A stretch of 64,000 nt of DNA. It comes from Bacteroidales bacterium (GTDB taxonomy: Bacteria > Bacteroidota > Bacteroidia > Bacteroidales > UBA10428). Below are positions 16,610 through 41,967 of the stretch, piece after piece. The first letter of the stretch is position 1. Each line of letters starts with the position of its first letter. The DNA lies in the NCBI GenBank assembly GCA_016933335.1, contig JAFGBD010000018.1, positions 3 through 64,002 of the forward strand, in the 5' to 3' direction. The position numbers and the translations under genes are program-made. Under the pieces are notes generated by a model. It saw only the letters and a list, made by a program, of their open reading frames with translations. It did not search any database and had not been told where the DNA came from.

Positions 16610-19600
16610 TCATAGTAAGATTCCTCTGTTATTAACCGGAGGGTATATCAGAAGAATGAGATACAGCACAAATGCATATAACCAGATAAATGTGATATTG
16701 AACCATAAGGTATTCAATACTTCACCCCTGAATTTTTTCTCGGGTACAAACAGGATTTCTCTGCCAAATTCAGATGTTGGCTTCTGAAATATCGGATCGG
16801 ATAATTGATATATCCTGTCTTTATAAATTTTTAAAGACGATGGCTCACCCTGGTTCATAACCAGGCTGGCTAACCTGGTATTATGATTTTTGTTTTTCAG
16901 CTCGCTGAATGCTTTATGACCTAAAGAATCAGCCAGGAATCTCAAGAAATCATTCTTTTCAATCACTGCATTTTCATATGCATTATACGTGTTGATCTCC
17001 AGGTAGGTAAGATAATCTTTCGTTTCCAGTGCGACTTCATTGTTATAGTCTTTAATATTGAGTTTGTCCAGGTATTCATATTCAAAAAAATCAGGTTCGC
17101 TGCTGATCTTAGTGATACCATTGCTGATCAGGTTCAGGTAATATGCAACTGAATCACTGGCAAGGTTTTTTATCATGCTTTTTTCAAGGTATGATTGCAG
17201 TTGAGGCAACAAATCATACAGGTAATAGGTAAATATGCTCTGTTTTTGTTCGTACGGATAAAATAATTTTTCAAATTTGTTGTGTCTGAATTGCTCCACA
17301 ACCATTGCTTCATAGGCCCATCTTACTGTCATTAGTTCACCTGGTAACGGTACAAAGGGACTTCTGGTCATGTTCAGATTTTCGTACTTAATGATTCCCG
17401 AACCCAGAATTAATTGAAATGCCATAATGATGGGGATGGATTTTGCATATATTGAACGCAGGCTTTTATGGATCATAGAAAGGTTCAGTCCTAAAATGAT
17501 GCCAAAACAACAGGTGCTGAATAGAATCAGCCAGAATTGAAACAACATCCCGCGTATTCCCAGGATGAAGTTACCCGTAATTGTTAACAAGAAGGTTTGA
17601 ATGGCTGCGATCAGTATAAGATAAAGAGTTTTTGCATTGATGTAACTGAATTTGCTGAATTCCAGATATTCCTCCTTATTCAGCAGGTTTCTTTCTTTCA
17701 GAATTTCATCTGCGCTGATTATGAGCCCGAGAAATATTGCCACGACAGTACAGAGGAACATGTAAAGAGGAATGTTGGGATTGTTCATAAAAACATAACC
17801 TTTTCCCGGTGAATATCTGAGCAGGATGCCCATTAATAATGCGATCAGGGGTCCGGCAAGGAGGGTATAAATAATTTTCCACCTGTTTGAAAACTTAATT
17901 TTAAAGTTTCTGATATTAAATATCTTAAATTGGGTTTCCAGGTTGGGAAGTTTGATGATTCCGGTTGGCAACGGCGTCTTTTCAACCCGGAGGGGTTTTC
18001 TTTTATTTTCATGAATTGCTGTATAGTGTTCATACCATTCAGACGGAGTGATTTTTCTCTGTCTCCATTTTCCGGAGTAATCTGTAAGTCTGAAATCCAC
18101 TAATTCCAGAATGCTTTCAGGAGAGATCTCACCTGGATTTACTTCCAGTCCTGTTATATCGAGAATGGAATGAAAATAATCAGCAGCCTTATATGCATCA
18201 TCTGTGAAAATCGGGTATCCTGATTCATCAATAATCCAGAGTTTATCGAACATCTTGAAAGCCTGCGGATTGGTTTGGCTGATGGTAGTAATAACCAGGT
18301 TACCTTCAAATGTATAATCGTGAAGTAATTTTAAAATTCTTGAGGATTCGACATTGTTCAGTCCGTAATATGGATTATCAACAAGGAGAATTTTGGGTGT
18401 CCGCAATAGTTCAAGGGCTATATTTAACAGTCTGCGCTGGCCTGGCTGGAGGTTTTTAAGATATATTGATCCTACAATAACATTTTTATATTCAAGCAGA
18501 TCGAGCTTTTCAAGCAGCAGACTGATTTTTTTATCCAGTTCCTTTAAGGGTGTCTTACTGTAAAACAACCGGGCAGACAGCATCAGGTTATCATATACTG
18601 ACAGCTCATCGAGAAGCAGGTCATCCTCAGGAATATAACCAATAATGCTTTTTAACAGGTACCTGTTGGTTTTAAGGTTATAATTATTGATCTGAATTTT
18701 TCCTGTATCAGGAATTTTTTGTCCTGCCAGCAATTCCAGTAAAGTCGATTTACCAACACCTTCTTTTCCAAGAATTCCCACAAGCACTCCTGAAGTTTCG
18801 CTTACACTGAACGGCTTTATTCCCTTGCTCTTTTTTCTCTGCTTATAGGAGATATCTTCGGCATTCAGTATAATTCCGGTTAGTAACCGGTATTCCAGAT
18901 ACCTGTGTTTGATATCCGAATAACGGATAACAGACTGATCATTTATTTTGATGACAGAGCCGGGTTCAAGAATTATAAATTTGCATACGGTACTGATGCT
19001 TCCTTCAACCATTAATCCTTCATTTCCCAGGCATTTCAGGATAAATATCTTGTTTTTTTCAAGAAACAGTATGTTTATGGGATTTTTTAATGCTGCAATT
19101 TCGATCTCATTTTTTATTTTGTAATCAGCAGGCAGGTTGCTCTCAATCCAGCTTCCTTCAAGTTCTTCAGTCTTATCAGCTGAGGAGGGTTTACAAATAA
19201 GGAAATTGGATTCGGCGTCCTGTAAATCTTCTTCCAGTACGAACCGGCAAAGATCATTGAATTCGGATGTGGACATCCCCAGCCTGATACATGCAATCTC
19301 CAGATAGTCCAGATCTTCCCTTTTTTCAGATACAGCGGTATAAAAATAATCGATAAGCAGAAGCATCAATACTATTCTGTCATTAAAAGATACTGACTGA
19401 ATTGTTTCAAGGGTTATTTTATCAAACATCGAGTTAACAATGGTCACTGAAAAATCAGGTTCTTTAAAGAGGTTGTATTGTTCTGTATATGATTCATAAT
19501 TAAATATATAAAAGCTCTCCAGATCCGGTGATACAGGTAATCTGGTCTGTTTCTGAAGATATTGAATGAATTTATTGCCTGCTTCAGACGGATTTTCCTG

Positions 19601-19663
19601 TCTGAACATAGAAGATACAAGAGCACAATATTTTGCAAGGGTTTTAAGTACGGACTCTCTCAT
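16610..19663 (-). CDS. ABCG-type (NBD-TMD) ABC protein with N-terminal extension incl. FHA-like segment; catalytic motifs degenerate
   Basis: Walker A is intact (GILGKEGVGKSTLLELLAG). NBD order and spacing align with ABCG/White half-transporters, followed by an ABC-2-type TMD with a large loop before the last helix. Q-loop, signature, Walker B Glu, D-loop and switch His are all substituted (see finding). Confidence 0.8.
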   Translation of the reverse strand: MRESVLKTLAKYCALVSSMFRQENPSEAGNKFIQYLQKQTRLPVSPDLESFYIFNYESYTEQYNLFKEPDFSVTIVNSMFDKITLETIQSVSFNDRIVLMLLLIDYFYTAVSEKREDLDYLEIACIRLGMSTSEFNDLCRFVLEEDLQDAESNFLICKPSSADKTEELEGSWIESNLPADYKIKNEIEIAALKNPINILFLEKNKIFILKCLGNEGLMVEGSISTVCKFIILEPGSVIKINDQSVIRYSDIKHRYLEYRLLTGIILNAEDISYKQRKKSKGIKPFSVSETSGVLVGILGKEGVGKSTLLELLAGQKIPDTGKIQINNYNLKTNRYLLKSIIGYIPEDDLLLDELSVYDNLMLSARLFYSKTPLKELDKKISLLLEKLDLLEYKNVIVGSIYLKNLQPGQRRLLNIALELLRTPKILLVDNPYYGLNNVESSRILKLLHDYTFEGNLVITTISQTNPQAFKMFDKLWIIDESGYPIFTDDAYKAADYFHSILDITGLEVNPGEISPESILELVDFRLTDYSGKWRQRKITPSEWYEHYTAIHENKRKPLRVEKTPLPTGIIKLPNLETQFKIFNIRNFKIKFSNRWKIIYTLLAGPLIALLMGILLRYSPGKGYVFMNNPNIPLYMFLCTVVAIFLGLIISADEILKERNLLNKEEYLEFSKFSYINAKTLYLILIAAIQTFLLTITGNFILGIRGMLFQFWLILFSTCCFGIILGLNLSMIHKSLRSIYAKSIPIIMAFQLILGSGIIKYENLNMTRSPFVPLPGELMTVRWAYEAMVVEQFRHNKFEKLFYPYEQKQSIFTYYLYDLLPQLQSYLEKSMIKNLASDSVAYYLNLISNGITKISSEPDFFEYEYLDKLNIKDYNNEVALETKDYLTYLEINTYNAYENAVIEKNDFLRFLADSLGHKAFSELKNKNHNTRLASLVMNQGEPSSLKIYKDRIYQLSDPIFQKPTSEFGREILFVPEKKFRGEVLNTLWFNITFIWLYAFVLYLILLIYPPVNNRGILL

Positions 19664-19826
19664 ATCCTTTTTGTGACTGTTGAACAGTTTGAATCAATTG
19701 TAAAGAAAAGTCTGTTTGATTATCAGTTATTTAGTTGATCTGAATCTAATTTTCAATTGATTATGTAACAATTAATTTCCAATTTACGTAAATTTAAAAA
19801 AAGCAAATTAATTTTTCATAGTTTTA

Positions 19827-19893
19827 TTGATTTTGGGTTTATTAACAGGGTTAATGAAAGAGGCTGTCACTAAAGCGGGATGGCCTCTTTTTT
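19827..19893 (+). repeat. Degenerate copy of the TTGAT-GGGTTTA-TTA motif followed by a plus-strand intrinsic-terminator-like hairpin
   Basis: ttgattttgggtttattaac..., then the stem AAAGAGGC/GCCTCTTT (19857-19864 / 19883-19890) with an 18-nt loop, running into a T-tract. Confidence 0.35.
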
Positions 19894-20017
19894 AAGTGAT
19901 AAAAATCATCGGTTCCGGATAATGAATATCACTTTATTATCATGTGACTGAACCTGATAAATCATTAAATTTGAACTGTTAATTCTGATAAGGGTTATAT
20001 TAGGGTTAAATATTACA

Positions 20018-20091
20018 GGTGTAAGTTCTTTGTTTGATAGGGTTTAATTAGTTTTAGGTGTTTAATCCCGGTCTTGGCCGGGATTTTTTTT
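20018..20091 (+). repeat. Repeat unit A: conserved 46-nt core plus intrinsic terminator (candidate sRNA 3' end)
   Basis: The core is ggtgtaagtt-N5-tttgatagggtttaattagttttaggtgttt. It is followed by an 8-bp stem AATCCCGG/CCGGGATT with a 6-nt loop and a run of 8 T (the first 2 in the stem). Confidence 0.5.
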
Positions 20092-20271
20092 GATATCTGC
20101 CAGACAGTTACGATCAACTGTCAATTGACTGCAATGAAATTCCAGATGATCAATCTCACCCTTATCAGATAACAAAAATCATCTCAATTATTTAACCTTG
20201 AACGGCATTTTTTCGTATATATGGATGTACTCTGATTGAATCAGATTATTATTGTACTTTTTATAAGAAGC

Positions 20272-20348
20272 GGTGTAAGTTTTCATTTGATAGGGTTTAA
20301 TTAGTTTTAGGTGTTTGAATAACCCGGCAGCGTCCGGGTTATTCTTTT
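20272..20348 (+). repeat. Repeat unit B: conserved 45-nt core plus intrinsic terminator (candidate sRNA 3' end)
   Basis: Same core (the 31-nt stretch 20286-20316 is identical to 20033-20063). It is followed by an 11-bp stem GAATAACCCGG/CCGGGTTATTC with a 6-nt loop and TTTT. Confidence 0.5.
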
Positions 20349-20396
20349 GGATTCCCGGCAGGTTAATGATTGAATAAGCCTTTTGGCCTATTAAAA

Positions 20397-21101
20397 TCAC
20401 AATCCAAGAAAAATAATGGCAAATCCGCTCAGAAAAATAATGGCACCTGCTATTGCATGAGAATATTTTTCCAGCTTTCCGAAAGAGACCGGTTTCAAAA
20501 TATATGTTGTCAGCAATACGATGACCAGCATAGTCAGGATGGTAAAAACAGAAAAAACTGCTGCCACAATAATCAAACCTGATACATTTTTTCCTGCTGC
20601 AGGCACCAGTAATTGAGGAATAAGCAATTCGCAGGGGCCCAGAAAAAAAATAAGGAACAGTATCCAGGGAGTATAATTAAATGCTTTGTCTATTTTGTGC
20701 TCATGTTCATGGTCTTTAACATGAAGATGTTCATGGTCGTGTACAATACCATCTTTGTGGATGTGGATATGTTTATGAGCTTTATTTTGAATGGCGCGAC
20801 GGATACCCCACAACATATATAGAAAACCGAAGATAACAAGAATCCATGCCGCAATATTCCCTCTGATGCCTTCGATATGTTCCATTCCTATTCCCAGAGC
20901 TACTCCGGTCAATCCGATTAATACAGAGGTACCGACATGACCCAGTCCGCACAGGAATGTAATCCATGCCGTTCGTATCACAGACCATTGCCTTGCTTTG
21001 GCAAGGACGATAAAGGGCAAATAATGATCAGGCCCTGCAAGTGTATGGATAAAACCGGTAGATGCTGCAGTGACGGATAGTATAAGAATTTCGTTATTCA
21101 T
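20397..21101 (-). CDS. Six-TM metal (nickel/cobalt) permease with central His-rich loop (RcnA/NicO- or HupE/UreJ-like)
   Basis: TM1 motif HTLAGPDH follows the H-x3-G-x-DH pattern of HupE/UreJ-type Ni transporters. The central loop is HKHIHIHKDGIVHDHEHLHVKDHEHEHK. The layout is 3+3 TM, as in RcnA. Start moved to the ATG at 21101 (MNNEILIL...), 10 nt after the upstream stop; the longer ORF (to 21203) overlaps the upstream gene by 92 nt. Confidence 0.7.
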   Translation of the reverse strand: MNNEILILSVTAASTGFIHTLAGPDHYLPFIVLAKARQWSVIRTAWITFLCGLGHVGTSVLIGLTGVALGIGMEHIEGIRGNIAAWILVIFGFLYMLWGIRRAIQNKAHKHIHIHKDGIVHDHEHLHVKDHEHEHKIDKAFNYTPWILFLIFFLGPCELLIPQLLVPAAGKNVSGLIIVAAVFSVFTILTMLVIVLLTTYILKPVSFGKLEKYSHAIAGAIIFLSGFAIIFLGL

Positions 21102-21111
21102 GTTGGTATAT

Positions 21112-22572
21112 TTAGTAATAAGTGATATCAAAAATGTTATTTCTGTCCCATTCCAGCCAATATTTAAGGGCAGAACGACGGACAAGTTTCCAGTAACCGT
21201 CATCTGCCAGTCCGAATTTTATGATGCCTTCCTGGATATCTTTATTGATGATATTCAGATATTCTTCTTTAAGTCTGATCTTTACCGATTTCTCCCTATA
21301 GGTGAAGATTGCTTCAGGACGGTTCAGCGTATCATTTGCCAGTGATATGGTACCCTGACCCAGTGTTGCACCGGTGCTGACCTGGATACCGTCATTCAGG
21401 CAACTGTATGGAGGAATTGTTCCGGCACAGGATACAACAGTGAGATGATCGGGTTGCACATTAAATATTTCACGGGCTTTAATTCCCATTTTAGCCCCCA
21501 CAATGGAAAAAATTCCCAGGTGTCCGTGAAACTCATCTGTGATGACACAGGCTTTCCATTCATCATGCCCGTAACGGGCAATGGCTGAATCCATGATCTG
21601 CCTTACATCATAATTGTACATCTGCCGGTCAGCTGGAAATTCATTAAAAGCAACGTTTTTTTTGAACCGGTAAGTGCCTTTCACCAAATCGGTAATCACT
21701 TCCATGATGGCAGGCAGATGATAAGACTCAACAAACCTGATACGTATATCAGAAAGATTGATATTCATATCGAACAGTTCAGGATTCAGGATGTAAACAG
21801 CCACGAGTTCATCTTTCATGAAATCGTTTTTACAACGGCTATTCTTATTCATACCAGGCTGCTGATGAAACCTGCCGATGATATCTGACAGCCGGCTGTC
21901 ACTGTTATTTAGTACCTCCATGAATTTTTTATTAAATTCTTCTGTTTCTTTACGAAGGTTTGAAATGATATCAATCCTTATTTTATTGGATGACAGTACT
22001 TTATTAGCTTTTATGCTGTCGCAGTCATAATTGAAACCCTGAATGGGCCGGATTGAGCCTGCATACCATACAATCCGTTTGATCTGGCTTACATATTGTG
22101 GAAAGTTATCAAGCAGGTCATATGCTGTGGACAGAGATCCCAGGCAGATCAGTGAATAATCTCTCTTTTCTGTACCTTCAAAGAGGACCTTCAGAACCTG
22201 ATCATAATCATCACATTTCGCATCATTGTCTGAACGGCCCCATTTCAAAGGCTGGTTTAGCTTTCTCCAGGAAGGTACATAACTGATACGACTGGAATTG
22301 CAGATTACAGGAATGGAATCAATATTCCATTCTTTAAGCAGGGAATTGATCTTAACAACTCCGTCTTCAGGCTTCAGGGTTCCTTCAGATACAATGATAG
22401 CTGCAACTTTAATTGCCGGTTGTGATAAAAGGAAATTGACTGAATGAAAATCATCAATGGCACAGTCGGTATCAATGATAATTCTCTGAACAGGAAGTGG
22501 CTCGGAAGGGAAACAAGCCTTCCGTACCATCAGTGACAATAAGCATAAGCAGACTGTTTTCAGATGCTTCAT
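21112..22572 (-). CDS. Secreted fusion protein: inosine-uridine nucleoside-hydrolase-like domain + FmdE-like domain
   Basis: Signal peptide (MKHLKTVCLCLLSLMV). N-terminal IIIDTDCAIDD resembles the IUNH Asp cluster DTDPGIDD. The C-terminal DEFHGHLGIFSIVGAKMG ... SCLNDGIQVSTGATLGQGTISL matches the FmdE-family HGH and C..DGIQ..TG.T.G.G motifs. Confidence 0.7.
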   Translation of the reverse strand: MKHLKTVCLCLLSLMVRKACFPSEPLPVQRIIIDTDCAIDDFHSVNFLLSQPAIKVAAIIVSEGTLKPEDGVVKINSLLKEWNIDSIPVICNSSRISYVPSWRKLNQPLKWGRSDNDAKCDDYDQVLKVLFEGTEKRDYSLICLGSLSTAYDLLDNFPQYVSQIKRIVWYAGSIRPIQGFNYDCDSIKANKVLSSNKIRIDIISNLRKETEEFNKKFMEVLNNSDSRLSDIIGRFHQQPGMNKNSRCKNDFMKDELVAVYILNPELFDMNINLSDIRIRFVESYHLPAIMEVITDLVKGTYRFKKNVAFNEFPADRQMYNYDVRQIMDSAIARYGHDEWKACVITDEFHGHLGIFSIVGAKMGIKAREIFNVQPDHLTVVSCAGTIPPYSCLNDGIQVSTGATLGQGTISLANDTLNRPEAIFTYREKSVKIRLKEEYLNIINKDIQEGIIKFGLADDGYWKLVRRSALKYWLEWDRNNIFDITYY

Positions 22573-22717
22573 GTGGTTAAGTTTTATTCAGGTTATCGGG
22601 CAAATGAATCCCGAAGAATCTGCCCCGGTCTATCGGGAAGCGAAGAGAATAACCCGGCAGACCTAAACTTACCCTGCCTCTGATGGTTATTGAACATGAG
22701 ATTATCATATTATTTTT

Positions 22718-24682
22718 CTACTGTCTGAATTTCAGGGGAGCTTTGAAATCACTCCTGAAGTTCAGATTGAATCCTCCTGAAAAATTAATTCCCGGCATCG
22801 GATAGCCATTGTTTATATAATAAGTCTGATTCAGCAGATTATCAGCGTTAAAGAAAAGGTTGAAATACCTGGTAAGCCGGTATTTCATCATTGCACCAAC
22901 AACTGTATAGTTTTTTTCCAGGACCGCGGTCTCACCCCGGATATCGGCATACAGATCAGAGATATTCTGGACACTGATGTTGAGATTGATTTTCCTGAAA
23001 CGATAATTTGCGGATGCAAAGAGGTTATGTTGAGGGGTTCCCGGCAGCGGTGTTTCCATATGTATGAATGCATAATTGGCGTGAAACTTCAGGTTTCTGG
23101 TCAGGTTGACGGTACCTGAAAATTCGATTCCCATATTGCTGAATTCTCCTGTATTACGGTATATCGGCGGAGGAGGTGCAATAGCAGGTACCATTATAAT
23201 CCGGTTTTCACCTTTTACAAGGTAAGTTGTCAGTTCTGTTTTTATCCTGTTCTCATACCAGCTCTGTATCCAGCTGGCTTCATAATTCATCAGTTTTTCG
23301 GGTTGAAGGTTGTCGTTTGCCGGAGGGAAAAAATACAGTTCCCTGATTGAAGGAGGACGATAACCTTTGGATACTGAACCCTTGATGGTTGTATTTGAGG
23401 AAGCATGCCATGCAAAACCCGCCTGGGGTATCAGTTCGTTTGTATATGTTTTGTTAATTTCATAGCGGAGACCGGTATTGATTGAAAATATTCCCCGGAT
23501 CAGATGCTGATAGCTGATATAAAAGGCATGGTTCTGCATGTTTATCCATTTATTATCATATTCTGATGTGACGAACTGCGGGCCGGATGGACCAGGAATG
23601 ATCCTGCCGTCTTCATCCCTGATGACTGATACGATCGGACTGCCTGTTCCTCCAAAGTTCATATAGTCATACCCGGCAGTCAAGGTGCTGTTTGTCATCA
23701 GCTTTAATCCCTGGTAGAACATCATTCCGTACAGTACGTCATTTGAATGCCAGCCATCGGTAATATCGTGTTCACCAAAGTTGCAGAATATTTTTAAAGC
23801 TCCTTCAAGTGAATTGAAGTTATTCTCAACCGAAAGAGCAGTTTTTCCCCGAAGGATATCGATGCGTTCTCCTGCAATACTGGCTTCAAGCCCCGGATCT
23901 GAAGTTTCAAAATGTGCAAGGCTGAAATCGGCCATGGCCGACAGGTGTTTGTTCAGCTTATATCCGGTCTTAAAGTAAGCATTGGTAATGGCAAAATCGG
24001 ATGAATCCCGGTGCCCGTCAGTCTGATCATGGTTGACTGAAGCAAACAAATCAAGATTTTTCCTTCGCATACCACCACTGAGTGATAGTTTTCGTGTATC
24101 AAATGATCCGTATACAGCTTTGGCATTGACTGTATATCCATCAGAGTGTTGTTTTCGGGTGATGATGTTGATAACCCCGCCAAAAGCATTTGAACCGTAT
24201 AAAATGGATGCCGGTCCGCGTATGATTTCCACTTTTTCAGCGTCTGATGAGACATAAGCATCCGGCAGGTGATGCCCCATTGTTCCCATAAACTGCGGAT
24301 GGCCGTCTATCAATATCAGCACCTGTGTGGTCGGATTTCCTCCAAGTCCCCTGATATTAATCTGACCGGCAGCACCGTCTGCAACACCGAAACCTGTGAT
24401 GCCTCTTTCTGTGATGAAAACTCCCGGTACCTGCTGGCTGATAACAGGCAAGAGAGCGGATTCACCGGATTGTTCAATCTCTTCATGTGTAATGACAGAT
24501 ACGGTAAGCGGTACGTTTTTACGTGCCACTTCTATCTTGGTACCGGTTACAACCACTTCTTCAATTTCAATGGTGTCTGACAGTGACTGCTGCGCCGATA
24601 AGCTGCTATCTGTTAAAACTGATAGCAGGATGGAAAATATTGATAAGGAAGTGATTTTAAACTTAACTGAACAGGGTTTCAT
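22718..24682 (-). CDS. TonB-dependent outer-membrane receptor (small, BtuB/CirA-size)
   Basis: Signal peptide, TonB-box/plug region (DTIEIEEVVVTGTKIEV...PLTVSVIT.EEIEQSG, IRGLGGN, ILIDG). 654 aa. The C-terminus is typical of a beta-barrel, ending in aromatic residues. Confidence 0.9.
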   Translation of the reverse strand: MKPCSVKFKITSLSIFSILLSVLTDSSLSAQQSLSDTIEIEEVVVTGTKIEVARKNVPLTVSVITHEEIEQSGESALLPVISQQVPGVFITERGITGFGVADGAAGQINIRGLGGNPTTQVLILIDGHPQFMGTMGHHLPDAYVSSDAEKVEIIRGPASILYGSNAFGGVINIITRKQHSDGYTVNAKAVYGSFDTRKLSLSGGMRRKNLDLFASVNHDQTDGHRDSSDFAITNAYFKTGYKLNKHLSAMADFSLAHFETSDPGLEASIAGERIDILRGKTALSVENNFNSLEGALKIFCNFGEHDITDGWHSNDVLYGMMFYQGLKLMTNSTLTAGYDYMNFGGTGSPIVSVIRDEDGRIIPGPSGPQFVTSEYDNKWINMQNHAFYISYQHLIRGIFSINTGLRYEINKTYTNELIPQAGFAWHASSNTTIKGSVSKGYRPPSIRELYFFPPANDNLQPEKLMNYEASWIQSWYENRIKTELTTYLVKGENRIIMVPAIAPPPPIYRNTGEFSNMGIEFSGTVNLTRNLKFHANYAFIHMETPLPGTPQHNLFASANYRFRKINLNISVQNISDLYADIRGETAVLEKNYTVVGAMMKYRLTRYFNLFFNADNLLNQTYYINNGYPMPGINFSGGFNLNFRSDFKAPLKFRQ

Positions 24683-24718
24683 TTTATAAAGAATTTAAAT
24701 CTAAAATAATTATTAAAA

Positions 24719-25120
24719 TCAATTGGCTTTGCTCATTACAAGCTTTCCGTGCTGGATGCCCTTCAGTGCAATGATTTTATCGGCGAGTTCAGTCAATTCC
24801 TGGGCTTTGCCTTTAACAGCAATTGTTTCAAGGCAAAGATCATGGTTCAGGTGGATATGCTGTGTTGAAAGGATACAATGATGATAAGTGTGCTGTATTT
24901 CATTCGATTTGTTATTGATATCATATTTATGATGGTCAAAAACAATAACAATGGCACCGGCTACAATATTATTACACTTCCATTTTTTCTCAACGATGTT
25001 GTTTTCTATTAAGTGGCGGATTGCCTGGGATCGGTTGGGTAATTTATTGTCTGATGTGTAATTATCCAGTTTTTCCAGGGTTTCCTGTTCAAGTGAGACT
25101 CCAAATCTTATGACCGACAT
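24719..25120 (-). CDS. nikR: Nickel-responsive transcriptional regulator NikR
   Basis: N-terminal ribbon-helix-helix (IRFGVSLEQETLEKLD......NRSQAIRHLI). The C-terminal metal-binding domain has conserved His/Cys positions (VIVFDHH....QH..HH.I.ST.HIHLNHDLCLE..AVKG). 133 aa. Confidence 0.9.
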   Translation of the reverse strand: MSVIRFGVSLEQETLEKLDNYTSDNKLPNRSQAIRHLIENNIVEKKWKCNNIVAGAIVIVFDHHKYDINNKSNEIQHTYHHCILSTQHIHLNHDLCLETIAVKGKAQELTELADKIIALKGIQHGKLVMSKAN

Positions 25121-25149
25121 TGTGTTACGATTTTATAAAAAGTAACACA
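25121..25149. promoter_or_regulatory. Putative NikR operator: perfect inverted repeat TGTGTTAC-N13-GTAACACA
   Basis: Perfect 8-bp arms at 25121-25128 and 25142-25149 with an AT-rich 13-nt spacer, directly abutting the nikR start codon (25120). To my recollection this is the same half-site class (GTGTTAC/GTAACAC, N13-14) predicted for NikR regulons in comparative-genomic work. Confidence 0.6.
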
Positions 25150-25155
25150 AATGTA
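25148..25155 (-). promoter_or_regulatory. Bacteroidota-type -7 promoter box (TAnnTTTG) of the nikR operon
   Basis: The minus strand reads TACATTTG. It overlaps the distal operator half-site by 2 nt, so the transcription start would fall inside the palindrome. Confidence 0.45.
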
Positions 25156-25226
25156 GATTTTTTATTTCAAAACCATCATATAATGAGCAAAATATTTGGA
25201 TGATCTGAAATGAAACGGGTGTTTTT

Positions 25227-26291
25227 TTATACAAGCCTGAATATATCTCCTGTCCGGGGCACAGATATTCTGCTGTTCAATCCTTCCCTGGTGATTATCT
25301 GACTGGCCCATGATTCAAGCTCTTTGTCGTCAAGCACTTTTTCATTGTAACACTTTTCATCTTCATAACCACTGTAATGTATCAGCCTGGTATGCGGAAT
25401 TTCGGCTTTCTTCAGAAATTCCGAAACAGAGAAGGGTATTTTCTTGATATCTTTATTGTCTTTCAAAAATCCGCTGAAATAATTGTGGATTTCACTGTTA
25501 AAAGGCTGTTGAAGATGCGGTGCTGCCAGTTTTGAGAAACTCAGCTCTTCGAGCCAGCTGCCTAAGTATTTGCTTTTAGCCCCGGTTTTCGGATCAATTG
25601 TGGTAACGCTTCCATGATTTGATTCAGGGTATGAAAACCTGTTATTACAGTCAATATACATCACCCTGGCTTGAGCAATTTCCCTGAAATCCCTGTCCCT
25701 GAGTAACGGACAAAGCATATCGCCCGTAAAAACTGCCCTGACTGCATTTTTGTCCTGATTCCGGTACTCAAGAAGGAGCAGCGAAGCACCAAATCCACTG
25801 TCACCATGAAAAACAGGAAATGCTGTTACGTATATGTCATTGACTTCGTCTATTTTACATTGTATTCCCGGAATAAGCTCATGAAATTCAATGATCTTTT
25901 TCAGTTGCGGAAATGACTGTCTGACAAATTCCCAGCAGGGAAGTGTTGCATAAAGGGGATATTTTTTCCTGAATTCATGCCTGTGCGAAAAACTTTCTGC
26001 TATCCAGTCTATACCAACGGTATGATCCAGATGGGGATGCGTAAGAATAAGGGCTTCCGGTATCCGGTTTTCATGTCTGATAATGTAAGATGCGGTATTA
26101 TTACCGGCATCAACCAGTAACTCACATTCAATTTGCTGAAGATTCAAATCAGCACTTTTCGTTCCGATAATTGAATATGAAGCATTACCCAGACCATCAG
26201 GGTCATCCGGGGAATAAAACGGATGGCTGTTTCCTAAAAATACCGGCCATGCATTTGCCCGGCCGTTTAATCTTATGAATAGACGTTTCAT
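25227..26291 (-). CDS. MBL-fold metallo-hydrolase
   Basis: Metallo-beta-lactamase signature LILTHPHLDHTVG plus downstream His/Asp ligands (FPVFHGDSGFGA). 354 aa. Confidence 0.75.
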   Translation of the reverse strand: MKRLFIRLNGRANAWPVFLGNSHPFYSPDDPDGLGNASYSIIGTKSADLNLQQIECELLVDAGNNTASYIIRHENRIPEALILTHPHLDHTVGIDWIAESFSHRHEFRKKYPLYATLPCWEFVRQSFPQLKKIIEFHELIPGIQCKIDEVNDIYVTAFPVFHGDSGFGASLLLLEYRNQDKNAVRAVFTGDMLCPLLRDRDFREIAQARVMYIDCNNRFSYPESNHGSVTTIDPKTGAKSKYLGSWLEELSFSKLAAPHLQQPFNSEIHNYFSGFLKDNKDIKKIPFSVSEFLKKAEIPHTRLIHYSGYEDEKCYNEKVLDDKELESWASQIITREGLNSRISVPRTGDIFRLV

Positions 26292-26368
26292 TCTTCTATA
26301 TTTGTTTTATTCGTCTCGTTCCTGTATTCATTACCGTTTTTTTAATTGTAGTAACTATTGATATAAAA

Positions 26369-28525
26369 TCAGTCGATGATTGTCAGTTCGCCGATGATGT
26401 GATCAGCTCCGGCGTATTTTTCAATGATAAACAAGACATACCTGATATCAAGTGAAATATTTCTGCAAATATCGGGATCATACATGAAATCATTCATTGT
26501 ACCTTCCCAGTTACGATCAAAGTTAAGACCAACAAGATAACCGTCAGCATCCAAAACCGGACTGCCTGAATTTCCTCCAGAAGTATGATTGGATGCTATA
26601 AAACACACGGGCATTTTTCCGTTTGCACCGTAGCGGCCAAAATCTTTTTCTTCATAAAGGTTTTTCAGTTTCTCAGGTACAACATAATCATAAACCTCCG
26701 GATCTTCCTTTTCAATAATTCCCTTAAGCGTGGTATTATAACGGTATTCTACCGCATCTGCCGGTGAATAGCCCTCTGCTTTCCCATATGTCATACGCAT
26801 GGTGAAGTTGGCATCAGGATAAAACAGTTTATCAGGCTGCATCAGCATGAGGGCAGCCAGGTATTCAGGATAAAGATCATCTAACTGTTCTGTCAGTTTA
26901 TCGTATTGTGGAAAGATTTTGTTTCTGTAAACTTCTCCAAAGGATGAATAAATCCTGAATAGCGGATCAGAGATGATTTTTCTGACACTGGCATTTGAGT
27001 AATGATCCAGCAATTCCATGATTTGTTCCTTGTCTGTGAAAAAGCTCTTTTTATAAATCCTGTCTGCAAATTTGCGGTAATTGCCTCTAAATTTCTGATG
27101 GATCGTGTGATAGAAATCAGGAAGGAATTGCTGGCCGACATTTGCAGAATACAGCTCCAGTACTTTTATAAATATTTCTTTGTCAATTTCAACCTCATAA
27201 TTTTTAAAAAAATTTTCTGTTCTGCTTTTCAGCTTGTTAATGGTAGATTCAGGCTCTTCTTCCTGATTCTCTGACATCAGACTCAGCAGACTGGTAAATC
27301 CGGAAACATATTCAATCAGTTCAACGTGAAAGATGGCCTCACTTGCATAATCATTCACGAAATAATATGGTTCAAGCTCGCTGTAGGTTTTCGAAAATTC
27401 AGGTAACAGATAGGCGTATTTTTCCTGATTATCCGGATTTCGATTGAGCCATAACCGGAATTGCTCTTCAAAGGTTTCTTTTTTTCTGATGGTATTGTAT
27501 CTTTCAAATCCTTGTAACACGCCAATCCATTTTTTCCAGGCATTTGCCATACCTGCATATTTGCTGGCATATTTCAGCTTAATTTCCGGATTCCTGTCCA
27601 TGGCGTTTTTCATGATGTCCAAAATAGCATTACGAAGTTCAATTTTCCGGGGCAGGGTACTGTTACTGATGATCTTCAATTCATGTGACGTGAGATACTC
27701 ATTCGTTCTTGCCGGGTAACCAAGTATCATGGTAAAGTCATTTTCCCGGATCCCCTTGATGGATATTTTAAGATGATTTCCTGGTTTGTAAGGGATATTT
27801 GAGGGTGAATAATCAGCCGGAGAGTTAGTTGAATCAGCATATATCCTGAAAAGTGAAAAGTCTCCTGTATGTCTTGGCCAGATCCAGTTATCGGTGTCTC
27901 CTCCGAATTTTCCGATAGAGGCAGGCGGTGCTCCTACCAGCCTGATGTCTCTGAATGTCTGATAGACAAACATATAATACTCTTTTCCAAAATAAAAAGG
28001 CTTGATCTCGGCATTGTAACCGGTTCTATCTGTCGTAATTTTTATTAATTGATCAATACTGCGGTCAATATGCTTTTCTTTTTCTATGCGACCAGCAATA
28101 CTATCTGTACCCTGAAGAACCATTTGGGTAACATCCTCAATTCGTATAAGAAATGAAGCAGTTAATCCCGGATTTGGTAATTCTTCGGATCTTGTAAAGG
28201 CCCAGAAACCTTCATTCAGGTAATCCTTTTCCAAAGTACTGTGGGCCTGAATGCGGCTGTAACCACAATGATGATTTGTCAGCACGAGTCCGTCAGGAGA
28301 AATAACTTCACCGGTACAACCTCTTCCGAACAAGATCACCGCATCTGCCAGGCAGGCCTTATTGATGCTGTATATATCCTCAGCAGCCAGCCTGCAGCCT
28401 TTTTCCTGCATGTCTTTGATGTTGAACTTCTCGATTAACAAGGGTATCCACATACCCTCTACAGATAATCCTGTACGAATAATGATGTGCAAGAACAATG
28501 CGGATAAAAGCAAACTTTTTCTCAT
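26369..28525 (-). CDS. S46 family dipeptidyl-peptidase (DPP7/DPP11-like)
   Basis: Signal peptide then EGMWIP, catalytic TNHHCG, and C-terminal GGNSGSPVLD serine motif. The 718-aa length is typical of the S46 family. Confidence 0.9.
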   Translation of the reverse strand: MRKSLLLSALFLHIIIRTGLSVEGMWIPLLIEKFNIKDMQEKGCRLAAEDIYSINKACLADAVILFGRGCTGEVISPDGLVLTNHHCGYSRIQAHSTLEKDYLNEGFWAFTRSEELPNPGLTASFLIRIEDVTQMVLQGTDSIAGRIEKEKHIDRSIDQLIKITTDRTGYNAEIKPFYFGKEYYMFVYQTFRDIRLVGAPPASIGKFGGDTDNWIWPRHTGDFSLFRIYADSTNSPADYSPSNIPYKPGNHLKISIKGIRENDFTMILGYPARTNEYLTSHELKIISNSTLPRKIELRNAILDIMKNAMDRNPEIKLKYASKYAGMANAWKKWIGVLQGFERYNTIRKKETFEEQFRLWLNRNPDNQEKYAYLLPEFSKTYSELEPYYFVNDYASEAIFHVELIEYVSGFTSLLSLMSENQEEEPESTINKLKSRTENFFKNYEVEIDKEIFIKVLELYSANVGQQFLPDFYHTIHQKFRGNYRKFADRIYKKSFFTDKEQIMELLDHYSNASVRKIISDPLFRIYSSFGEVYRNKIFPQYDKLTEQLDDLYPEYLAALMLMQPDKLFYPDANFTMRMTYGKAEGYSPADAVEYRYNTTLKGIIEKEDPEVYDYVVPEKLKNLYEEKDFGRYGANGKMPVCFIASNHTSGGNSGSPVLDADGYLVGLNFDRNWEGTMNDFMYDPDICRNISLDIRYVLFIIEKYAGADHIIGELTIID

Positions 28526-40921: not shown

Positions 40922-41967
40922 TGTCCATGGTCATTCCTAAATCATTGGGTTACTTTTTTCCTGCCGAATGGGAAAGACATGAAGCCACATGGCTGACATT
41001 CCCGTTTCACGAAGGTTCATTTCCAGGTAAAATGAACGACATCCTTCCCTCATATATGACTTTACTGAAAACCATTTCAATGGGTGAAAAAATCAGGTTG
41101 ATTGTCCAGGATGAACAGACAGAACAGAAAGTCATCCGTCTTTTATATGAACATGGCATTGATCAAAACCAAACCGAGCTTTTTATCCATCCGAGCGATG
41201 ACGTATGGTGCAGGGATCACGGCCCTTCATTCCTTATCAATCCAGACAGCAGCGATCACAAAAAAGCGATCGTCAACTGGGAGTTTAATGCATGGGGTGG
41301 CAAATATCCTTATAAACACGACAATGCCATAACAGGATTCATTGCAGAGAAACTCGGATTGAAGATTTTCAATACGGGTATCATTCTGGAAGGGGGCAGT
41401 GTCGAACTGAACGGAGAAGGTACCCTCGTCACCTCTGAAACATGCCTTCTGCATCGTAACCGGAATCCCCGTCTGGATCGTCAGAAGATCGAAAAGTACC
41501 TGGCGGGTTATTTCGGTGTAGAACAGGTGTTATGGCTTTCGGAAGGTATTGCGGGAGATGATACGGACGGCCATATTGACAATGTGGTGAGATTTGTGAA
41601 TGAGGATACGGTTATCACCATGATTGAACCGGATAAGGGTGATGTGAATCACGGGCCTCTTGCGAGAAACCTGAAGCTGTTGAAAACTTTCCGGCTGCAG
41701 AATGGAAAACCGCTTCAGATCGTGGAAGTTCCGATGCCGTCTGCGGTTCATTATGAAGGGAAAAGACTTCCGGCTTCATATGCCAATTTTTATATATGCA
41801 ACCATGCCGTTATAGTCCCTACTTTCAGATGCCGCAACGATAAAACAGCCCTCGATATATTTGAAAAGCTTTTTACCGAAAGGAAAGTTACAGGCATAGA
41901 TTCAACAGACATTGTCTGGGGGTTTGGCAGTTTTCACTGCCTGACCCAGCAGGAACCTTTCGTATGA
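40921..41967 (+). CDS. aguA: Agmatine deiminase
   Basis: FPAEWE, WCRDHGP, DGHIDN and C-terminal catalytic Cys GSFHCLTQQEP. 348 aa. Confidence 0.9.
   Translation: MSMVIPKSLGYFFPAEWERHEATWLTFPFHEGSFPGKMNDILPSYMTLLKTISMGEKIRLIVQDEQTEQKVIRLLYEHGIDQNQTELFIHPSDDVWCRDHGPSFLINPDSSDHKKAIVNWEFNAWGGKYPYKHDNAITGFIAEKLGLKIFNTGIILEGGSVELNGEGTLVTSETCLLHRNRNPRLDRQKIEKYLAGYFGVEQVLWLSEGIAGDDTDGHIDNVVRFVNEDTVITMIEPDKGDVNHGPLARNLKLLKTFRLQNGKPLQIVEVPMPSAVHYEGKRLPASYANFYICNHAVIVPTFRCRNDKTALDIFEKLFTERKVTGIDSTDIVWGFGSFHCLTQQEPFV

Follow-up and report, generated by a model that had tools for sequence, protein, structure and literature searches.

A predicted NikR-controlled nickel-acquisition operon with a secreted nucleoside-hydrolase/FmdE fusion in Bacteroidales

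Four genes behind a NikR-type operator

We analysed a 64,000-nt stretch of a Bacteroidales contig (JAFGBD010000018.1), called the window below, and in it a cluster of four genes on the minus strand. In the direction of transcription, these are nikR (24719-25120; 133 aa), a gene for a TonB-dependent transporter (TBDT; 22718-24682; 654 aa), a gene for a secreted protein in which a nucleoside-hydrolase-fold domain is fused to an FmdE core domain (FUS; 21112-22572; 486 aa) and a gene for a His-rich permease, a predicted Ni(II) importer with six helices in a 3+3 arrangement (20397-21101; 234 aa). The open reading frame (ORF) coordinates agree with a first-pass annotation of this DNA, which had described four same-strand genes with gaps of 36, 145 and 10 nt. 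The identities it had given to NikR, the TBDT and the fusion were confirmed by profile searches.

The first gene encodes a nickel-responsive repressor of the ribbon-helix-helix type, which is predicted to control its own gene. The protein scores 100.8 bits with NikR_C (gathering cutoff 22; E-value 5e-29), a marginal 20.0 bits with RHH_1 (gathering cutoff 20.5) and 141.2 bits with the NCBIfam equivalog NF003381 (cutoff 105), and its alignments with the NikR proteins of P. horikoshii (2BJ1; E 7.6e-30) and H. pylori extend over the whole protein. Its segment IQH...QHIHLNHDLC matches IQH...THIHMDEHNC of HpNikR and LQH...LHVHMDEHNC of PhNikR column for column. We take the aligned H...HxH...C residues to be the high-affinity nickel site of NikR, made of a His from the neighbouring subunit, the His-x-His pair and the Cys.

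The predicted NikR operator, a perfect inverted repeat GTGTTAC-N13-GTAACAC, occupies positions 25122-25148 and ends 1 nt before the ATG of nikR; the minus strand just 5' of the gene reads TAcaTTTGTGTTAC-N13-GTAACACaATG. It is the sole perfect copy in the 64 kb, where chance alone would give about 5e-4 such copies. The NikR signal GTGTTAC-[N13/14]-GTAACAC was derived by Rodionov and colleagues from delta-proteobacterial nikMNQO operons (PMC545781), and the window palindrome equals this published predicted consensus letter for letter. The NikR-type palindrome noticed earlier at the operon head is in this respect exact, and it also overlaps a promoter box: its first base is the last G of a TAnnTTTG motif, TAcaTTTG, read from the sequence at 25148-25155 on the minus strand. 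We take TAnnTTTG to be the Bacteroidetes -7 promoter element; a generic sigma-70 promoter scan is uninformative for Bacteroidota. The same 1-nt overlap of the box with the left half-site is found in 15 of 22 related loci inspected. Given this overlap, a NikR tetramer on the operator would cover the promoter and the transcription start, a placement that reads as repressor geometry.

The product of the second gene begins with a signal-like sequence, predicted to be a signal peptide, followed by EEVVVTG, which we assigned by eye as a TonB box, and continues with a plug (Plug, 75.9 bits; 4e-21) and a 22-strand-type barrel (TonB_dep_Rec_b-barrel, 120.9 bits; 2e-34). Compared with the NCBIfam equivalogs (BtuB, CirA, FepA, FhuA, heme receptors and others), it comes near no cutoff, the best scores being 134 bits for TonB-siderophor (cutoff 223.5), 126 for TonB-B12 (599.7) and 87.6 for BtuB (836). 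Its resemblance to the solved structures of CirA and BtuB is confined to the plug region. The relatives of this TBDT number in the thousands; the best 120 share at least 52% identity with it and are mostly 630-645 aa long. In three of the four contigs that we looked up, FUS is the gene directly after a close homologue; the copy in L085 (related loci are cited by such numbers) is solitary. A NikR box with at most one mismatch precedes the TBDT in two of the three look-up loci with DNA, perfect in L085 and with a single mismatch in L086. The TBDT is part of a NikR-box-associated clade and reaches no equivalog cutoff; we do not find it grouped with BtuB or siderophore receptors under a different regulator.

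Recurrence of the parts across Bacteroidales

A pattern scan, with one genome per GTDB species, gives 277 FUS loci. We retrieved 80 of them, nearly all from metagenome-assembled genomes of Bacteroidales or other Bacteroidota, called and clustered their ORFs and annotated the recurrent clusters; the counts are over 79 loci. NikR, the small TBDT of this clade, the permease or NikMNQO lies within a few genes of FUS in 46 of the 79. The complete order NikR-TBDT-FUS-permease recurs in L001, L002 and L004, the nearest relatives; it is rearranged in L084, where NikR-TBDT-FUS is divergent from the permease.

No CbiMNQO-type importer is present in the operon or among the other annotated genes of the window, in line with the earlier observation. 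In 22 related FUS loci, NikMNQO (CbiM, PDGLE, CbiQ and CbiO) occupies the equivalent position. The layout NikR-CbiM-PDGLE-CbiQ-CbiO-FUS is headed by NikR in 12 loci and appears in further loci without an adjacent nikR; L037 (NikR-TBDT-NikMNQO-FUS) and L076 (NikR-TBDT-FUS-NikMNQO) carry both a TBDT and the importer. Layouts with no nikR in the locus are TBDT-FUS-permease, FUS-permease and FUS-NikMNQO. In two Paludibacteraceae loci (L069:979-4904 and L075:910-4787), permease-LarB-LarC-LarE-NikR is divergent from TBDT-FUS; larBCE are genes for the synthesis of the nickel-pincer cofactor. In L086:5001-9772, a NikR box precedes TBDT-FUS-Nramp, and this Nramp is possibly nickel-regulated. Finally, L079:4513-13422 reads NikR-TBDT-FUS-TBDT-PBP2-FecCD-ATPase and L022 has FUS with a Peripla_BP_2/FecCD/ATPase importer; these chelate-type ATP-binding cassette (ABC) systems hint that some relatives may import a nickel chelate across the inner membrane. 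Judged from gene content, TBDT-FUS is the conserved core of a predicted system whose inner-membrane partner (permease, NikMNQO, Nramp or FecCD-type ABC importer) is interchangeable.

The operator follows the same genes. Allowing at most one half-site mismatch, we counted 19 sites in 1.01 Mb of related loci, with about 0.3 expected, and 17 of the 19 lie directly upstream of nikR, TBDT or FUS. In NikR-headed relatives the operator ends 1 nt ahead of the nikR ATG, as in the window. Loci without nikR carry perfect or near-perfect operators ahead of TBDT-FUS-permease (L044, L057, L054), FUS-NikMNQO (L015, L062, L013, L017) and FUS-permease (L040, L041).

Two variant arrangements were also seen. In L070, about 60 nt 5' of FUS, the half-sites stand in reversed order (GTAACAC-N13-GTGTcgC); a direct repeat, GTGTCAC-N13-GTGTTAC, is present at L087:4950-5000. 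Reversed half-site orientation has been reported for Desulfotalea (PMC545781).

Universal control of FUS by NikR is unsupported: loci with FUS only, or with FUS and DUF6702, are mostly boxless at up to 3 mismatches. Genes of the DUF6702 family (one or two, about 159 aa; Pfam 9e-14) flank FUS in 22 of the 79 loci, among them L007, L012, L021, L033 (for instance L033:8952-9431), L077 and about 17 others. In the usual layout FUS is immediately followed by one such gene in its own orientation and then by another in the opposite orientation. DUF6702 genes are absent from the window.

Instead of nickel, the system might handle cobalt, a corrinoid, a Ni-tetrapyrrole such as F430, zinc or iron, the link with NikR being secondary. 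The sub-threshold matches of the TBDT do include BtuB, siderophore and heme receptors, and several of its homologues are named 'cobalamin receptor' by JGI; CbiMNQO-type systems can be Co-specific, Nramp (L086) is usually a Mn or Fe carrier, and Zn is bound at FmdE sites in crystals. On the other hand, riboswitches (B12, NiCo) were sought in the leader and in the TBDT-FUS spacer with an Rfam scan of 19500-26500, which returned no B12 riboswitch or other relevant match in or near the operon. The TBDT, as noted, reaches no equivalog cutoff, the linkage to larBCE is nickel-specific, and NikR with intact nickel ligands occurs with the canonical nickel operator in dozens of loci. We consider a cargo other than nickel very improbable.

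The secreted fusion and the permease

FUS is a two-domain protein. Its nucleoside-hydrolase-fold domain spans about residues 29-300 (IU_nuc_hydro, 67.2 bits, gathering cutoff 34.2, 2e-18, residues 31-270) and its FmdE core domain about residues 320-486 (FmdE, 55.2 bits, gathering cutoff 22.9, 1e-14, residues 348-481). There are 942 detectable homologues, and both domains are present in all of the best 120; Sec-type signal peptides occur throughout the family, and the window protein, too, begins with a signal-peptide-like sequence. FUS is a large, coherent and uncharacterised family, labelled 'nucleoside hydrolase' in databases. That FUS is a surface lipoprotein working with the TBDT, in the manner of BtuG or SusD, was rejected as the general case, most members having no lipobox Cys; the subclade of the window protein has a Cys near the cleavage site, outside a canonical lipobox. 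Stand-alone secreted relatives of the FmdE domain were sought exhaustively with HMMER. The search gave 191 clusters at 50% identity (E <=1e-30), and the best 150 matches are of fusion length or shorter, the shorter ones presumably being gene fragments; no other architecture is present among these 150. Full-text literature searches found nothing linking FmdE, nickel and nucleoside hydrolase.

In the AlphaFold 2 (AF2) model (pLDDT 77), the N-terminal two thirds of FUS form a full nucleoside-hydrolase fold, with Foldseek TM-scores of about 0.7-0.75 to RihA, YeiK and IU-NH (E about 1e-12). In the DxDxxxDD fingerprint, D34, D36 and D41 are invariant and D40 is at least 90% conserved; N181 and D254 are also invariant. 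We take the equivalents of these residues to bind Ca2+ and ribose in the IU-NH enzymes. Scores with the RihA and RihC equivalogs are far below cutoff (RihC, 37 bits vs 382).

In the FmdE part, H349, H351, C391 and D394 are invariant among 18 diverse members, and the motifs EFHGH and C(L/F)NDG(I/A)Q align with 2GVI (E 2.4e-5). In the FmdE structures 2GLZ and 2GVI the metal is held by His-x-His-x-Cys and a distant Cys, with mixed Zn/Ni occupancy in 2GLZ and, in 2GVI, an unidentified ligand 1.8 Å from the conserved Cys (PMC2954224). Residues H349, H351 and C391 of FUS align with three of these four metal ligands. Like 2GLZ, FUS has no C-terminal zinc finger.

These two domains invite a more specific variant of nickel uptake, in which FUS is an enzyme. 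The TBDT would import a nickel-bearing ribosyl or glycosidic molecule, for example a Ni-pincer nucleotide or an unknown nickelophore; the nucleoside-hydrolase domain would cleave it, and the FmdE domain would capture the nickel for ion transporters. A release step is logically required because NikM, Nramp and a secondary permease carry bare ions and the substrates of TBDTs are usually chelates. The complete fold (TM-scores as above to RihA and YeiK), the retention of D34, D36, D40, D41, N181 and D254, the ligand next to the conserved Cys in 2GVI, the chelate-type PBP2/FecCD importer beside FUS in L022 and L079 and the larBCE neighbours in L069 and L075 would all fit such a reaction. However, the equivalents of the catalytic His and of Glu166 are not kept, no candidate substrate is known, the loci show no genes for the biosynthesis of such a molecule, and 29 FUS loci have an inner-membrane nickel transporter yet no adjacent small TBDT. 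Moreover, the nickelophores known to us (His, and opines of the staphylopine or pseudopaline type) have no N-ribosyl bond. An enzymatic FUS appears unlikely on this balance. More speculatively, the fusion could found a new class of periplasmic 'metallophore-processing' proteins, which take over a TBDT-delivered nickel complex, cleave or open its ligand with the nucleoside-hydrolase domain and pass Ni(II) from the His-x-His/Cys site of FmdE to the ion transporter present in the given genome, be it the six-helix permease, NikMNQO or Nramp. We regard this proposal as doubtful; if true, the orphan FmdE domain would for the first time have a defined role in biochemistry, that of a module for Ni(II) transfer.

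The last gene of the operon starts at the ATG at 21101, and equivalent MxxE(I/L) starts are found in all 22 aligned homologues. A longer ORF reaching 21203 is spurious, as it overlaps FUS and the homologue starts fit the ATG at 21101. A hydropathy scan finds six hydrophobic segments (3+3), with HTLAGPDH at residues 19-26 in the first transmembrane segment (TM1) and GPCE in TM4; H19, D25, H26, H55, C157 and E158 are invariant. The His-rich loop described by the first-pass annotation is present (residues 109-135, 11 His), though with a length of 27 aa and not 28. The HupE-type motif stands only as a pattern: H-x3-G-x-DH is there, with no HupE_UreJ or NicO profile match. In 22 permease homologues, neither HupE_UreJ (PF04955) nor NicO (PF03824) gave a match at E up to 0.1. 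DsbD_2 (PF13386), which we take to be the family labelled UreH-like by InterPro, is matched by 21 of these 22 at the same limit (best 2e-9) and is precomputed on most homologues; the window permease scores 24.2 bits, just under the gathering cutoff of 24.9. Altogether 5263 homologues are detectable, across several phyla. The permeases of L069 and L075, linked to LarBCE, are stripped of most loop histidines, and the loop is probably dispensable for transport because these copies have lost them. In Zixibacteria (L081) and Acidobacteria (L082) the permease genes stand alone and lack a NikR box, so that their context is uninformative, and a tblastn search for annotated relatives against plasmids gave two weak hypothetical matches only.

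The direction of transport has to be weighed here. RcnA has 3+3 helices and a central His-rich loop, the permease weakly resembles the RcnA family in TM2-TM3, and some homologues are named 'nickel/cobalt exporter'. The permease could accordingly be an RcnA-like Ni/Co exporter, the cluster serving detoxification or mixed homeostasis, with NikR as an activator or the genes only loosely linked. Yet the RcnA score is 19.7 bits against a cutoff of 195, there is no NicO Pfam match, and the operator over the -7 box and leader has the geometry expected of a repressor. Import is the more likely direction because the permease would be co-transcribed with a TonB-dependent importer under a nickel-repressor operator, because NikMNQO or Nramp importers take its place at the same operon position in sister loci, because it is co-operonic with larBCE, and because no efflux regulator of the RcnR or CzcD type accompanies it in the loci that we examined. 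We see export as a highly unlikely reading.

A candidate nickel route, its surroundings and known counterparts

Taken together, the genes probably form a NikR-repressed, autoregulated nickel-acquisition operon that leads from the outer membrane through the periplasm to the inner membrane; the route, proposed earlier from the gene order, is supported by the gene content, the conservation of the operator and the association of the genes. With sufficient Ni(II), Ni-NikR on the operator would block transcription of nikR-TBDT-FUS-permease. When nickel is low, apo-NikR would leave the operator and the four genes would be transcribed from one promoter. The TBDT, with energy from TonB, would then move nickel through the outer membrane, probably as a complex. 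In the periplasm FUS would take the metal, probably via the His-x-His/Cys site of its FmdE domain, and its hydrolase-fold domain may act on the ligand, freeing the Ni(II) ion; the periplasmic protein may in this way strip a chelate, as had been suggested. The permease would carry Ni(II) to the cytoplasm, a step suggested by gene displacement and context. As cytoplasmic nickel rises, NikR would be loaded and the operon shut, nikR included.

Several points weigh against this nickel route. Which metal the TBDT prefers cannot be told from its sequence, and no nickel-dependent enzyme is found among the annotated genes of the window. The only named remote similarity of the permease is to the Ni/Co exporter RcnA, over TM2-TM3 and far below cutoff, and the names of its homologues are inconsistent (TauE/SafE sulfite exporter, Ni/Co exporter, NicO). 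In FUS, the fourth FmdE ligand is lost, the Cys (equivalent to Cys20) being replaced by G353; the acid-catalyst His of nucleoside hydrolases is replaced as well, the residue before D254 being K, C, N or S, and the Glu of the E-F-N motif (equivalent to Glu166) is G179. Because of these replacements, neither a binding nor an enzymatic role of FUS is secure; the AF2 model also has pLDDT below 50 at residues 304-352, the HxH motif included. Finally, 33 of the 79 FUS loci have no adjacent nickel gene: 15 have DUF6702 neighbours only and 18 have none, several of these on short contigs. No recognisable NikR box was found in the 22 of these 33 loci that were inspected. Because of these loci, FUS may not be strictly dedicated to nickel.

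The operon is flanked by genes that appear to lie outside the regulated unit. On its downstream side is a 1017-aa protein with ABC_tran and ABC2_membrane domains and a long N-terminal extension (16610-19663), and on its upstream side are a hydrolase of the MBL fold (25227-26291) and an S46 (Dpp7-like) dipeptidyl-peptidase (26369-28525), all on the minus strand. The latter two are set apart by their position upstream of the NikR operator, the ABC gene by the 733-nt gap in front of it. The three flanks show conserved synteny with L002 and L004, and likewise with L001 minus the MBL gene. Membership of the MBL-fold gene in the operon was rejected, as the gene lies upstream of the operator and is missing in L001.

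The gap between the permease and the ABC gene (19664-20396) has no convincing ORF, and its sole Rfam match is at chance level (anti-hemB, E 0.42). It holds two terminator-like hairpins, at 20064-20085 and 20317-20344, with T-runs on the plus strand. The second, a G+C-rich hairpin 53 nt past the permease stop with its T-run on the plus strand only, is a possible end of the operon. At the corresponding place L001, L002 and L004 have a gap of 350-625 nt.

The spacer between TBDT and FUS (22573-22717, minus strand) is 145 nt long, and its equivalent in L001 and L002 only 18-30 nt. It shows no significant fold (z = -1.4) and holds, at 22647-22660, a copy of the short repeat GAATAACCCGGCAG. The repeat (22634-22660; 24-nt inverted match, 88%) recurs at 20317-20357, where it makes the hairpin just past the permease, and a further copy with 2 mismatches is present at 41500-41513. 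The repeat has the look of a small REP/MITE-like element and probably explains the long spacer.

Only for a few proteobacteria is it understood how nickel gets through the outer membrane and the periplasm. Our literature searches (NikR and TonB with Bacteroidetes or Bacteroides) found no characterised system of this kind in Bacteroidota, in agreement with the first-pass annotation; no paper on such a fusion was found either. This locus and some 280 related ones in GTDB species representatives outline a predicted modular route, in which a NikR box, a TBDT and FUS are combined with an inner-membrane transporter that can be exchanged. They nominate an abundant family of secreted proteins as a nickel-trafficking component, and they point to a concrete and testable candidate function for the FmdE domain, which has lacked an assigned role since its structures came out in 2010. 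They also suggest that nickel importers are to be found in a large permease family named 'sulfite exporter TauE/SafE' or 'Ni/Co exporter'.

NikR-repressed, TonB-dependent nickel uptake is established in Helicobacter, with FrpB4 and FecA3 in the outer membrane and the permease NixA in the inner membrane. The window operon resembles the H. pylori system in its NikR-controlled outer-membrane TBDT, its secondary inner-membrane nickel permease and the predicted logic of nickel-dependent repression. In contrast, equivalog profiles and solved structures detect no orthology between the TBDTs beyond the generic plug and barrel, the window genes stand in one operon with nikR, and the permease is of the DsbD_2 type and not a NiCoT. 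We know of no Helicobacter counterpart of the periplasmic nucleoside-hydrolase/FmdE protein.

The two domains of FUS depart in parallel from their families. Like IU-nucleoside hydrolases (PF01156; RihA, RihB and RihC), FUS has the whole fold, the DxDxxxDD fingerprint and the Asn and Asp of the Ca2+/ribose site; unlike them, it is predicted to be periplasmic and not cytoplasmic, has lost the catalytic His and the ribose-binding Glu, is fused to FmdE and is encoded in metal-transport operons. With the FmdE family (PF02663; 2GLZ, 2GVI, 3D00) it shares the Pfam match, the motifs and three of four ligands, but it is secreted, is fused behind a nucleoside-hydrolase domain, has Gly in place of the third-ligand Cys, and has neither the C-terminal treble-clef zinc finger nor a link to formylmethanofuran dehydrogenase.

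The permease is small and polytopic, with a His/Asp signature in its first helix and a nickel genomic context, as are UreH, HupE/UreJ and NicO (NiCoT, RcnA). It shares a central His-rich loop with RcnA and H-x3-G-x-DH with HupE/UreJ, yet its homologues have no match to the Pfam families of either, and the RcnA model scores far below cutoff. The loci L069 and L075, where larB, larC and larE share an operon with a nickel transporter gene beside nikR, recall the lar operon of Lactobacillus plantarum (larA-E, Lar(MN)QO), although their transporter is a six-helix permease and not an energy-coupling factor (ECF) transporter, and the window itself has no lar genes.

The nearest regulatory counterparts are the nikMNQO and nikKMLQO NikR regulons of delta-proteobacteria (PMC545781), the loci with a NikR-box TBDT and nikMNQO predicted in Caldithrix abyssi (PMC5317091) and the NikR-regulated TBDTs predicted near nickel importers in proteobacteria (PMC11247825). 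The delta-proteobacterial and Caldithrix regulons share with the window an identical operator consensus, a NikR gene adjoining the target transporter and TBDTs predicted to be nickel-regulated, and sister Bacteroidales loci carry their NikM-NikN(PDGLE)-NikQ-NikO. Unlike these, the window uses a His-rich six-helix permease without NikMNQO, its accessory periplasmic part is the nucleoside-hydrolase/FmdE fusion and not NikK or NikL, and it belongs to the phylum Bacteroidota. The overall scheme, NikR-regulated TBDTs by nickel importers, is already known or predicted in other phyla; as far as the genes can be read, what differs here is the occurrence in Bacteroidota, the single nikR-headed operon, the His-rich permease of DsbD_2 type and, above all, the nucleoside-hydrolase/FmdE partner protein.

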